From a virus (lineage: Duplodnaviria > Heunggongvirae > Uroviricota > Caudoviricetes): a DNA stretch of 25,013 nucleotides. Positions 3,919 through 9,751 of the stretch are shown here, one piece after another. The stretch spans positions 1-25,013 of the IMG/VR virus record IMGVR_UViG_3300045988_007239. One strand, 5' to 3'. The notes below the pieces were generated by a model that was given only the letters and a program-made list of their open reading frames with translations, was not told where the DNA came from and did no database searches. Each line of letters opens with the position of its first letter. The stretch's first letter is position 1. The translations under genes were made by a program, and so were the position numbers.

Positions 3919-4263
3919 TTACACGCCTAGTTCTTTACGCTTATCTGCGATCTTCTCGCGGAGCGTTTCGGCTTTAGCGTTATGGTGTGGCTTCTCGTTA
4001 AAGAGCAATTCGTACTCTTCACGGAGCTTATCCAGTTCACCATCATCTGACACATCGTTGATGATTTTGGTGTTGGTTGCTGCCATTGACACCTTTCCTG
4101 CAACTTTTGCTTTTGCCTGTCTGGCTGCATCGTTAACAGGTTCCAGTGCGCTACCAGGCTCACCTTCGTATTCGATTTCTGCCCCCTCCGGCCACAGAGT
4201 GTTATGGATATGAGAGAGGCGCAGAACGCGGTATCTTGGTTTCTCACCTGACATCGATATCAC
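3919..4263 (-). CDS. hypothetical protein
   Basis: 114-aa ORF, co-oriented and closely packed in the structural operon. Confidence 0.55.
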   Translation of the reverse strand: MISMSGEKPRYRVLRLSHIHNTLWPEGAEIEYEGEPGSALEPVNDAARQAKAKVAGKVSMAATNTKIINDVSDDGELDKLREEYELLFNEKPHHNAKAETLREKIADKRKELGV

Positions 4264-4753: not shown

Positions 4754-5746
4754 TTACACCACGCGGGCTTCTGTTTCCAGAAGCGCATCAGTTTCACGGA
4801 TTGGTACACCACGGAATGAAGTCCACCACTCGCCTTCAGTCTCTTTTACGCTGATAGCCAGAGATGTTTTCTCCAGAGACTGCAGATCAAGAGCCTGGCC
4901 TACAGTGCGGTTCATGTAGAACACCGGGCGGCCCATGCCACGGTTTGGAATGCGATGTAGTGCTTTAACCATCAACTTCGCAATATTTGCGGCAGAGGAT
5001 GGTTCTGAAAGATTGCTGACATCGATGTTTGCAATGCGAACAACATAACGCCAGTCACGCAGAGCAAGTCCGTTATCCCATTTGTAATGGGTGCGATAGC
5101 CTTCGTACTTGCCGCCATTAGCATCTTCCAGTGTCACCTGGCCTTTATCTTCCATCTGGATGCCAGCCTTCTGCCCTTTCGGGAAGATGCCATGCACGGT
5201 GTTTTCGCCCCACACCACTAACCAGATTGAGGTGTTATCTGTACCCGTGCCACCAGCATCAATGATGTTCTGAGCATTACCCGCAGACAGGCTGGAATAG
5301 CGGGAGGACAGTCCCATAAACTGCTGAGGGTTAACGCTGGAATCACCATAAAACAGCGTCTGCGCCATCTGCTGATTCATCGCTTCAATAAATGCGCGGT
5401 CTTCAGACAGGCGGAATTCGGCGGTATTGCCGTTCAGATCAGCCAGTGACTTATCGACTTCAGCATAGGTTTCCAGCATGCCAACGGAATCGGTGACCTG
5501 CACTGTGGTTGATTTGCTTGGCTGTACGCCATAGTTCAGCAAACGCCAGGTAGCTGAAGGTAAACCAGAACGAATGGTGGTTCGGTGTCCGGTAGGAAGG
5601 TTCCCTTCGACAAAAGGCATATCCTGAAGGATCGGGTTAGTTTGACCGAGAAGCTCGATAATCTTATCGACTTTCCCGTTTGGATCGACGCGCTTACCCC
5701 AGTCAGCCAGCGTTAGCGCAGTTAAGCCTTTAACAGCCATTGTCAT
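4754..5746 (-). CDS. major capsid protein
   Basis: 330-aa ORF immediately after scaffold gene with strong RBS (AGAGAGGAAA); position and size typical of coat protein; followed by stem-loop. Confidence 0.7.
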   Translation of the reverse strand: MTMAVKGLTALTLADWGKRVDPNGKVDKIIELLGQTNPILQDMPFVEGNLPTGHRTTIRSGLPSATWRLLNYGVQPSKSTTVQVTDSVGMLETYAEVDKSLADLNGNTAEFRLSEDRAFIEAMNQQMAQTLFYGDSSVNPQQFMGLSSRYSSLSAGNAQNIIDAGGTGTDNTSIWLVVWGENTVHGIFPKGQKAGIQMEDKGQVTLEDANGGKYEGYRTHYKWDNGLALRDWRYVVRIANIDVSNLSEPSSAANIAKLMVKALHRIPNRGMGRPVFYMNRTVGQALDLQSLEKTSLAISVKETEGEWWTSFRGVPIRETDALLETEARVV

Positions 5747-8439: not shown

Positions 8440-8646
8440 TTACTGACCAAGTAGCGTTTTACCGCTGGTATTAGCGGTTGATGTGTCGCCCTGAGAACCG
8501 GTAAGCAGCGTAGAACTACGACCAGCAGCAGCGCGACGGCGACGAGTTTCTTCGTCGCGGGCATCAACAACGGCGGCATCCTGCTCCTGTGGTGCTGCCT
8601 GAACTTCTGGTGTTGCAGGCACTGATGGTGAGCTACCCATGCACAT
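8440..8646 (-). CDS. small acidic hypothetical protein
   Basis: 68-aa ORF with GGAG 10 nt upstream of ATG, immediately upstream of portal; an alternative-frame ORF (8427-8666) overlaps, so the call is uncertain. Confidence 0.35.
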   Translation of the reverse strand: MCMGSSPSVPATPEVQAAPQEQDAAVVDARDEETRRRRAAAGRSSTLLTGSQGDTSTANTSGKTLLGQ

Positions 8647-8714
8647 ATCAATGACTCCGTACGCAATTAAATTATTACCAATTTAACCACATATGATTTA
8701 TTTATCGTAGATAG

Positions 8715-8751
8715 TTGACATTTAACGCATAAATTATTACCTTTTGGGTAA
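8715..8751 (+). promoter_or_regulatory. promoter-operator module driving the tRNA insert
   Basis: TTGACA (8715-8720) followed by perfect TTACC-ttttg-GGTAA (8737-8751); the stretch acgcataaattattacc nearly duplicates the pL-like promoter at 19351-19367. Confidence 0.45.
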
Positions 8752-9073
8752 CCAAAGAGTTCATTCCGGTTACTAACCTGACTGGCTTGTCGTTAAATTG
8801 AACAGGTGGAGTGAGCTTTTATTTTGAGCAGTACGGCGTATGGCACATGCGCCGATAGCGGTCTGGATACGTTTAAGGGGCACCCTCCCTTGCTCGGGCA
8901 AACGAACCAGGTAGCCGGAATGTGCAAGTCGAGCGGTTTTATTCCGCGCACGGGGATTCACCATCCCGGCGATTCGGTGTGACACCTCGGAAGAGACGAG
9001 GGTACAACGATGAGAGCATTTATGGAGCCGCGACAAAGTGTGGTGCCTTAACAGGCTAAGTGCTCTCAGCGTT

Positions 9074-9150
9074 GTGGCATTAGCTCAGTTGGACAGAGCA
9101 ACCGCCTTCTAAGCGGTTGGTCGCAGGTTCGAATCCTGCATGCCGCGCCA
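9074..9150 (+). tRNA. tRNA-Arg (anticodon UCU)
   Basis: 77-nt cloverleaf folded by hand: acceptor gtggcat/atgccgc (one G-U), D-arm gctc..gagc, anticodon stem accgc/gcggt with loop cuUCUaa, T-arm gcagg-ttcgaat-cctgc, encoded CCA end. Confidence 0.9.
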
Positions 9151-9193
9151 GAATCACGCCTAAGGACCGTGATGCCAGAAGTTCCATGGGCTT

Positions 9194-9235
9194 GGCGGTG
9201 ATGGTTTCCTTTGAAGGACTATCACCGCCCTTTTT
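9194..9235 (+). terminator. intrinsic terminator after tRNA
   Basis: 9-bp stem GGCGGTGAT/ATCACCGCC (9194-9202 / 9221-9229) followed by TTTTT. Confidence 0.6.
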
Positions 9236-9313
9236 ACAGCATGACGCCATTGCGATGACTTCATGCTGTAAACCCGTACAGCCACGGAAGGCATAACTCA
9301 TTGCTTCCAGTTC

Positions 9314-9336
9314 GCCCGGTTCGCCGGGCTTTTTTT
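9314..9336 (+). terminator. intrinsic terminator
   Basis: GCCCGG-ttcg-CCGGGC stem followed by 7 T; ends 11 nt before the ATG of the 118-aa ORF. Confidence 0.7.
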
Positions 9337-9347
9337 AAGGTGAGATT

Positions 9348-9704
9348 ATGAACGACCAGCAAATCGAAAAAGAAATCGTTGAGAAAGGCAAAACGGCACC
9401 GCGAGTTACGCCTCAATATATCGAAAGCATCATTCTTGAAGAGCATTTCTTTACTGCTTATGACGGCATTCGTGCCGCCAATATGGGCGTTGGCGATTCA
9501 TGGACAGCGCATAAATCTACAGACCTCCTGACTTTCTGCGTACTGGTGCTGAAGAATGGCTTCACCGTCACCGGAGAGAGTACCTGTGCAAGTCCGGAAA
9601 ATTTTGATGCAGAAATTGGTCGGAAGATTGCCCGGCAGAATGCTGTAAACAAAATCTGGATGCTTGAAGGTTACTTGCTGAAGCAGAAGTTAAGCGAGCA
9701 ATAA
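9348..9704 (+). CDS. conserved phage protein of unknown function (possibly N4 gp49 / Sf6 gp66-like family)
   Basis: 118-aa ORF with AAGGTGAG RBS, on the opposite strand to flanking terminase and portal genes; family assignment from memory only. Confidence 0.7.
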   Translation: MNDQQIEKEIVEKGKTAPRVTPQYIESIILEEHFFTAYDGIRAANMGVGDSWTAHKSTDLLTFCVLVLKNGFTVTGESTCASPENFDAEIGRKIARQNAVNKIWMLEGYLLKQKLSEQ

Positions 9705-9720
9705 CACCGTGACATGTCAC

Positions 9721-9751
9721 AAACAGCCAGCTCATAGGCTGGCTTTGTTTT
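9721..9751. terminator. bidirectional terminator between insert ORF and terL
   Basis: AGCCAGC-tcatag-GCTGGCT stem, A-rich before and T-rich after; located where + and - strand genes converge. Confidence 0.5.

Follow-up and report, generated by a model that had tools for sequence, protein, structure and literature searches.

A structured, pseudoknotted RNA element in phage leaders and its likeness to put antiterminator RNAs

Introduction

Promoter-proximal RNA signals that let RNA polymerase pass terminators are well known from the nut sites of phage lambda, which act together with N, and from the boxB-boxA-boxC elements of rrn operons. Protein-independent, RNA-mediated processive antitermination is, to our knowledge, known essentially from the put RNAs of phage HK022 and a few relatives. 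A put RNA is about 70 nt long and forms two stem-loops in a V shape; it attaches to RNA polymerase at the beta' zinc-binding domain and acts in cis to suppress pausing and termination, and rpoC mutations in the zinc-binding domain (e.g., Y75N) block its action. It serves as the model for a nascent RNA that remodels RNA polymerase. The putL and putR RNAs of HK022 and the putL-like RNAs of HK639 were reportedly described by King et al. in 1996 and 2011. Both phages keep their put antiterminator RNAs just downstream of an early promoter; within put, U28 of the A27-U28-G29 triplet in stem I is critical, residues 59-64 lie at the centre of the interface with RNAP, A64 likewise being critical (Hwang et al. 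2022, PMC9378689).

The locus studied here belongs to an epsilon15-like podophage. The whole stretch of DNA that was analysed, referred to as the window, is 25,013 nt long, and its queried part (8640-9345) is ~98% identical to Escherichia phage phiV10. A short plus-strand unit sits there between two minus-strand structural operons, the left one of which ends in a head-tail connector gene, and the terminase genes lie to the right of the unit. Its leader (8752-9073, 322 nt) is located between a predicted operator-flanked sigma-70-type promoter and a gene for tRNA-Arg(UCU).

Results

The leader and its surroundings

The plus-strand unit contains the following features around the leader:

8715..8751, plus strand: predicted promoter with operator (sequence and conservation in relatives)
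9074..9150, plus strand: tRNA-Arg (UCU), anticodon tct, abutting stem P6 of the leader (ARAGORN; Rfam tRNA, 69.4 bits)
9194..9229, plus strand: intrinsic terminator T1, a 14-bp stem followed by CUUUUUAC (terminator scan, fold)
9314..9329, plus strand: intrinsic terminator T2, GCCCGG-UUCG-CCGGGC followed by UUUUUUU (terminator scan, fold)
9348..9704, plus strand: gene of the Phage_gp49_66 family, N4 gp49 / Sf6 gene 66 (Pfam PF13876, E = 1e-33)

The predicted promoter consists of a -35 hexamer TTGACA (8715-8720), a 17-nt spacer and a -10 hexamer TACCTT (8738-8743) overlapped by the palindrome TTACC-N5-GGTAA (8737-8751), and from this promoter-like site transcription is predicted to start at ~8750. 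A consensus promoter scan did not flag 8715-8743, and the site rests on conservation among epsilon15-like phages: the hexamers and the palindrome are kept, with a varying spacer, in Tyrion, Klebsiella phage ST512-KPC3phi13.3, SPN1S, an Erwinia prophage and others. An internal promoter considered earlier (-35 TTGAAC, 8799-8804; -10 TATTTT, 8821-8826) was dropped because the segment represents the 3' strand of the hairpin module P0 (see below) and because relatives conserve the promoter at 8715-8743. In epsilon15, the record lists repressor and IHF sites for the gp3-proximal intergenic region. The motif AAATTATTACC occurs twice, at 8665-8679, about 50 nt upstream of the -35 hexamer, and at 8730-8741 over the -10 hexamer, where it runs into the palindrome. 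The two copies are likely repressor operators common to the divergent promoters of the intergenic region.

The original prediction had described some 320 nt of GC-balanced, non-coding sequence between the insert promoter and the tRNA, too long for a usual tRNA leader and without an ORF to explain it, the longest plus-strand ATG ORF being put at about 23 codons. This description was confirmed. The predicted start at ~8750 fits the left boundary of the 322-nt leader, which is conserved across phage types, and GC content is 0.51-0.59 across the leader as compared to 0.33-0.35 in the promoter region just upstream. The longest plus-strand ATG ORF encodes 24 aa (8840-8914); longer ORFs exist only with TTG or GTG starts (52 aa on the plus strand, 8824-8982; 87 aa on the minus strand, 8773-9036), and neither has a match in Pfam.

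Both T1 and T2 are situated between the tRNA and the gene at 9348-9704, which is the sole protein gene of the unit and starts 18 nt after T2. In some relatives, the same slot holds an ORF matching the Tad2-like (Thoeris anti-defence 2) domain PF11195. As the slot is occupied by gp49_66 or Tad2-like ORFs, the unit may be an early accessory or anti-defence cassette. A T-rich hairpin (AGCCAGC-TCATAG-GCTGGCT, 9724-9744, plus strand) between the convergent ends of the gp49_66-type gene and the terminase large-subunit gene is probably the terminator that closes the unit.

A conserved fold with a pseudoknot

Most of the leader is taken up by a conserved core and two flanking stem modules, P0 and P6:

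8755..8820, plus strand: P0, long imperfect hairpin module (MFE fold, z = -2.1; relatives)
8833..9008, plus strand: conserved core, 176 nt (nhmmer with the family profile, alignment A1)
8834..8854, plus strand: P1 hairpin CGGCGUAUGGCACAUGCGCCG (covariation, comparison with put)
8858..8915, plus strand: P2 helix (covariation, alignment A1)
8911..8928, plus strand: nearly invariant single-stranded block GUAGCCGGAAUGUGCAAG (invariant in A1)
8933..8947, plus strand: P3, short variable hairpin GCGG-UUUUAUU-CCGC (read from the sequence)
8953..8979, plus strand: P4 hairpin and pseudoknot (covariation)
8985..9001, plus strand: P5 hairpin CCUCG-GAAGAGA-CGAGG with conserved loop GAAGAGA (covariation)
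9005..9074, plus strand: P6 stem with hypervariable insert 9019-9060 (MFE fold, comparison of 165 copies)

The core is the single match to the family profile in the window (nhmmer, 152 bits, E = 8e-45). Its fold is documented by alignment A1, which comprises 28 diverse core copies with less than 96% identity and contains ~55 invariant nucleotides. In this alignment, 94.8% of the proposed pairs form, and 10 pairs, one of them in the pseudoknot, show compensatory changes. None of 500 shuffles reached the observed pairing or covariation, and only 27-48% pairing remained when the 3' partners were slid by 1-3 columns.

The individual helices differ in what they conserve. Pair 6:18 of the P1 hairpin is G-C in 13 and A-U in 14 sequences. 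P2 has a conserved base, AGCGGUCYGG / CYRGGUAGCC, in which all six base pairs are 100% paired, and an apex of variable length with a pyrimidine-rich YUCCUU-like motif; its pair 32:90 is C-G in 19 and U-A in nine sequences. For the central single-stranded block, independent ascertainment via the 5' hairpin pattern gave only the single-base variants GUAACC, GAAGCC and CCGGGAUG. In the region equivalent to P3, relatives have other small hairpins of other lengths. P4 is formed by pairing of 8953-8956 with 8964-8967, and its loop CACC (8959-8962) pairs with GGUG (8976-8979), thereby creating the pseudoknot, the 3' strand of which is separated from P4 by an invariant GGCG (8968-8971). Compensatory changes affect three of the four P4 pairs (GGGA/UCCC, ACGC/GCGU, UUGA/UCAA), three P5 pairs and pseudoknot pair 147:167, which is C-G in 25 sequences and A-U in three, such that CACC/GGUG becomes AACC/GGUU. 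RNAalifold offers an alternative in which the invariant GCACAU of P1 pairs with the invariant AUGUGC of the central block, neither side of which varies. We prefer the local P1 hairpin because pair 6:18 covaries; a switch between the two pairings is conceivable.

The modules flanking the core belong to one type, 'CAAC-stem...stem-GUGUG'. P0 is a degenerate copy of it; relatives keep a perfect version, AAAGCGCGCU...AGCGCGCUUU, and the homologous segment in epsilon15 was annotated 'RNaseIII, mRNA processing' by the depositors. P0 is accordingly a candidate RNase III substrate. P6 is of the same type and lies directly 3' of the core in 103 of 165 family members, with stems of 14-19 bp, a span of 64-127 nt for stem plus insert, and 31 distinct strand pairs that include many compensatory variants. 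In the window, CAACGAUGAGAGCA (9005-9018) pairs with UGCUCUCAGCGUUG (9061-9074), the last pair taking G9074, the first base of the tRNA. The P6 insert (window 9019-9060; likewise L003, L037, L006, L010 and L107) differs between phages with ~99% identical flanks, and the window has its insert in common with mEp460, an unrelated lambdoid. T-arm-like GGTTCGATTCC pieces are present within some inserts, as are near-complete tRNA-like sequences, which ARAGORN does not recognize. A tRNA-like reading of downstream 'GUGGUGAAUGCGCAGGCUGAUGCGC...' modules was abandoned, ARAGORN finding no tRNA there.

A protein-coding core would keep a reading frame and change its length in threes. No reading frame is open in all 28 sequences of A1, five of them are closed in all six frames, and the lengths of 162 of 178 indel runs cannot be divided by three. 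At the gathering thresholds of Rfam 15 only the tRNA passes, and at E <= 10 the best non-tRNA models score 12-23 bits on an 801-nt region, against thresholds of 41-80. At six further loci with a homologous copy, nothing over the element reaches an Rfam gathering threshold, and literature searches returned no description of the element. The conclusion that the leader holds a structured, non-coding and pseudoknotted RNA family missing from Rfam is well supported.

Distribution and relation to tRNA genes

The complete leader is ~98-99% conserved in phiV10-type phages. Copies of its 3' 245 nt (8833-9077) with 72-83% identity occur in unrelated phage types. Among these are the lambdoid phages mEp460, cdtI, mEp390, 2H10 and Stx2c- and Stx2a-converting phages, phage P1 and its relatives, uetakeviruses of Klebsiella, Salmonella and Enterobacter, and a Stenotrophomonas phage. 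Viral-contig scans together with the family profile yielded 165 full-length copies, and a pattern scan of one genome per species pointed to ~22 species, nearly all of them Enterobacterales. A 706-nt query containing the leader matches 1090 of 5426 complete E. coli genomes (about a fifth). In addition, 591 plasmid records match, 549 of them non-mobilizable, and most of the matches listed cover the same stretch as phage P1, in which the copy is found at about 71,023-71,205 of NC_005856.

Two unusual arrangements were seen. Epsilon15 itself (L001, 2820-2870, equivalent to 8833-8883 of the window) keeps only the first ~50 nt, which comprise the P1 hairpin and the beginning of P2; the remainder of the core was deleted together with P6, tRNA-Arg and terminator T1, and T2 and the downstream gene are still in place. 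Viral contig L029 carries two tandem core copies (3997-4153 and 4800-4958) in the same orientation, ~800 nt apart.

An ordinary tRNA 5' leader is short, poorly conserved and dependent on its tRNA. For the element, 87 of 132 loci showed no canonical tRNA at a distance of up to about 400-700 nt; in phage P1 a tRNA-Ile lies upstream of it, and in the lambdoids there is no tRNA. The tRNA link is thus incidental. The original prediction of a structured RNA co-transcribed with the tRNA is supported by conservation, compensatory changes and the lack of a conserved frame, with the qualification that the RNA is not tied to the tRNA. The other origin suggested at that time, a remnant of a captured host tRNA operon, is not supported: only 1090 of the 5426 E. 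coli genomes have a match, and the contexts examined belong to early regions of phages or prophages and to phage-like plasmids, none being a tRNA operon of the core genome. Comparative alignment and an Rfam covariance-model search had been proposed as checks. The former gave the compensatory changes (10 pairs, 28 sequences), and the latter gave no Rfam 15 match to the leader RNA beyond the tRNA passing its threshold. A lack of sequence and structure conservation in related phages had been named as speaking against such an RNA; both sequence and pairing turned out to be conserved.

Position relative to early promoters and terminators

Neighbouring genes were compared for 72 distinct contexts. 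Upstream of the element, a CI-type repressor gene in the same orientation is seen most often (HTH_3 in 20, Peptidase_S24 in 19 contexts), and a repressor of this type (HTH_3 plus Peptidase_S24) is the nearest upstream ORF in at least 19-20 of the 72. In mEp460, cI is followed by a terminator, by two operator repeats with a PL-like promoter, and by the core ~40 nt after the predicted start; then come ~300 nt of further structured leader including a terminator, and the first early-left gene. Loci L050 and L041 have HK022-type operators with -35 TTTACA and -10 CATATT; here, 17-25 nt separate the core from the predicted PL start. The corresponding distance in the window is ~83 nt from the predicted start of the operator-controlled promoter. 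Phage P1 has its copy late in the ban operon, just before ban, and no terminator was detected between the two.

Terminator-like hairpins on the sense strand occur within 700 nt downstream of the element in 45 of 72 contexts, compared to 24 of 72 on the antisense strand of the same segments and six of 58 on the sense strand 1.5-2.2 kb further on, an enrichment that appears only under stricter criteria and in context clusters that are not phylogenetically independent. A permissive terminator detector gave no difference between sense and antisense strands (54 versus 53 of 72). Taken as a whole, the sequence comparisons place the element just downstream of predicted early, repressor-controlled promoters, with terminators following.

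The PL leaders of some element-bearing lambdoids (L008, L018, L073, L048) are 500-650 nt long. Hairpin modules closed by CAAC...GUUGUG(G) follow in shuffled order 300-650 nt after the core, together with a long-range GUUGUGGUGA...UCACCACAAC stem, and the first gene is preceded by several terminators. In three other loci (L092, L138, L049), a hairpin and then an rrn-type boxA (TGCTCTTTAACAA or AGCTCTTTAA) follow 10-45 nt after the core, which suggests Nus-factor-dependent antitermination with, or instead of, an activity of the core itself. The minus strand of mEp460 (L002) additionally carries a C4 antisense RNA and an IsrK RNA recognized by Rfam (706-793 and 818-894) at the antirepressor (Rha) region; these are unrelated to the element.

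The element and put at the same locus

Mosaic relatives allow a direct comparison of put-type and element-type loci. The PL sequence of L276 (put-type) is 91-96% identical to those of L041 and L050 (element-type), with equivalent distances, and L198 (put-type) has a downstream module in common with L062 (element plus P6), 92% identical and starting in each locus immediately behind the RNA. As judged from these alignments, the element takes the place of putL at the same locus in mosaic relatives. It starts 17-40 nt after the predicted PL start in lambdoids and thus occupies the slot of put immediately downstream of PL, in the same orientation and with terminators downstream; the lambdoids concerned show no N gene.

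Several short blocks are common to the two RNAs; they were found by eye and are not all collinear. Hairpin P1 shares ACGGCG...CAUGCGUCG with put stem I, i.e., the closing helix and the A27-U28-G29 triplet; in HK022, stem I has CGGCG/CGUCG and the CAUG motif in common with P1, and U8848 is the equivalent of U28. The element block CCGGAAUG resembles put C59GGCAAUG66 (common CGG(C)AAUG), and P5 resembles stem II of the HK639 putL-like RNA, CUCAGGAAGAGCGG (common GGCG...CUC(A)GGAAGAG). The HK639 arrangement GGCGGG-CUCAGGAAGAG-CGGCAAU has its counterparts in GGCG, CUCGGAAGAGACG (P5) and CCGGAAUG of the element.

A put profile built from 16 put-like sequences scored 70 bits with HK022 putL and had no hit in the window or any of the element-bearing loci searched, none of which contains a classical put sequence; the element profile, in turn, gave no significant match in put loci. 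Because the profile searches gave nothing in either direction, the link to put rests on position and short blocks. The first profile match in HK022 (CGGTGTGACACCT) lies inside the nun coding sequence and was discarded as a chance match, and a gapped stem-I pattern scan of viral contigs was given up since its hits were mostly chance, only 16 of 121 being put-like. In five put-type loci, the element profile shows weak matches (E 0.6-2.3) to the part comprising P4 and the pseudoknot, 2-4 kb downstream of putL and in the same orientation (L198, 1744-1786; L280, 4727-4771; L238, 8370-8415; L284, 6728-6772; L276, 9150-9192). These may be a coding-sequence coincidence.

Discussion

The reading that we tentatively favour, with a confidence that stays short of even, is that the core is a larger, put-like, cis-acting antiterminator RNA. 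The nascent 176-nt core would emerge from, and bind to, the very elongation complex that makes it, and the bound polymerase would become resistant to downstream terminators, T1 and T2 in the window and those of the long PL leaders in lambdoids. In this way, transcription would extend into the genes past the terminators only if it had begun at the early promoter. The P1 hairpin and the CCGGAAUG block would be the counterparts of those parts of put that contact the beta' zinc-binding domain, and P0 and P6 (RNase III) and the tRNA (RNase P) might define processing sites. Several observations count against a cis-acting antiterminator: the copy in phage P1 precedes ban without a terminator, epsilon15 has lost most of the core and still keeps T2 and the gene, a boxA after some members offers another route to antitermination, one member is directly followed by a small ORF, and the flanking RNase III-type stems and the tRNA fit an excised, trans-acting RNA equally well. 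A broader proposal, possible and put forward with distinct reserve, is that bacterial RNA polymerase is reprogrammed, without a protein factor, by a second class of RNA that has a distinct structure and is far more widespread. The element would then be an enlarged relative or analogue of put that serves P1-type plasmid prophages and epsilon15-like podophages as well as lambdoids without N, with swappable P0/P6 modules and hypervariable inserts that would add specificity.

An RNA excised from the early transcript would be stable and act in trans: the core would be freed through cleavage of the P0 and P6 stems by RNase III and cleavage at the tRNA by RNase P, and the product might, for example, engage a host protein or defence system as a decoy or sponge, or have a regulatory role. 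This is the main rival reading; we consider it unlikely, albeit deserving serious attention. The core is indeed bracketed by long, near-perfect stems, one of which carries the annotated RNase III site in epsilon15, and a tRNA on the 3' side (epsilon15-like phages) or the 5' side (phage P1) would give precise ends. Copies lie in early or accessory regions beside the candidate anti-defence genes gp49_66 and Tad2-like, and the position before ban in phage P1 needs no cis mechanism. On the other hand, nothing identifies a target, 62 of 165 copies have no P6 directly after the core, and neither the tight promoter-proximal placement nor the exact substitution for putL in lambdoids is required for an RNA acting in trans.

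We regard it as improbable that the leader is a sensor, riboswitch-like or responsive to a protein or to temperature, in which the state of the receptor decides on transcription past the downstream terminators. Its anatomy is aptamer-like in that covarying helices and a pseudoknot hold unpaired blocks that do not vary, and variable 'platforms' as well as terminators follow downstream. These terminators are 150-400 nt away; in the window they lie beyond P6 and the whole tRNA, so that no overlap between aptamer and terminator is possible. Moreover, the element matches no known riboswitch class and is not associated with metabolic genes. We attach an equally low probability to a role confined to processing or stability, that is, a folded 5' domain that would shield early transcripts or the tRNA precursor from RNases, or guide maturation, and leave polymerase unaffected. 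The location at transcript 5' ends, beside tRNAs in two phage groups and with RNase III-type stems, agrees with such a role; a simple stabilizer needs neither ~55 invariant nucleotides nor a pseudoknot across unrelated phages, and most members have no tRNA nearby. Finally, it is scarcely credible that the conserved unit is not an RNA at all and instead a small protein gene or pseudogene on either strand, a DNA-level site or the host operon remnant, even though some GenBank records annotate hypothetical proteins across the element (mEp460_037, a Tyrion ORF) and a TTG-initiated ORF of 87 aa exists on the minus strand: the frames are interrupted and the indels not in threes as outlined above, Pfam has no match, compensatory changes keep plus-strand pairing and 80% of E. 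coli genomes do not contain the sequence, and a non-RNA artefact is thus essentially excluded.

If the put-like reading is true, a second, larger fold does the job of put, RNA-only antitermination is a common strategy, a new RNA-polymerase complex becomes available for structural study, and early gene expression in the many lambdoid phages without N becomes easier to explain. Even with another function, this is an uncatalogued pseudoknotted RNA family, and as it resides in easily manipulated phages (P1, phiV10, mEp460), the question of function is directly testable. The element is carried by about a fifth of complete E. coli genomes, several hundred plasmid records with matches like that of P1, Shiga-toxin-converting phages and the laboratory phage P1.

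Comparison with known systems

RNase III hairpins process phage early transcripts such as the T7 early mRNAs and the lambda N leader. It is P0 and P6, long and nearly perfect stems flanking a functional unit, that can be likened to these hairpins, not the core, and cleavage of P0 and P6 is a prediction.

GOLLD and ROOL, reportedly described by Weinberg et al. in 2009 and 2017, are said to be large, ornate, phage-associated RNAs often found beside tRNA genes. Like them, the element is phage-borne and highly structured, lies beside tRNAs in some genomes and has variable regions able to hold tRNA-like pieces. It differs in being three to four times smaller, in host range and in that most copies are promoter-proximal and not tRNA-linked, and neither family matches the element region in Rfam even at E <= 10.

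With nut and rrn signals, the element shares the promoter-proximal position, and some copies carry the rrn-type boxA TGCTCTTTAACAA right after the core. In contrast, the window leader has neither boxA nor boxB, and a large folded domain stands in the place of a short linear box and a small hairpin. An N-like protein was not detected among early-left ORFs; no N antiterminator family is among the top 25 PHROG families assigned to 89 ORFs of 17 early-left operons.

The closest parallel is put. Promoter-proximal location, with promoters and starts being predicted, and downstream terminators are common to both. A put RNA of ~70 nt with two stems in a V shape faces a core of 176 nt that is 2.5 times larger and has at least five helices and a pseudoknot, and recognizable sequence similarity is lacking. 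Whereas HK022 has putR as a second copy, one copy per phage and no putR-like second copy was found in the loci examined. Because size, architecture and profile similarity do not agree, we class the element, from these sequence comparisons, not as a member of the put family and rather as its analogue or variant, possibly a distant relative, which also occurs outside the lambdoids, in P1-type plasmid prophages and, beside a tRNA, in epsilon15-like podophages.
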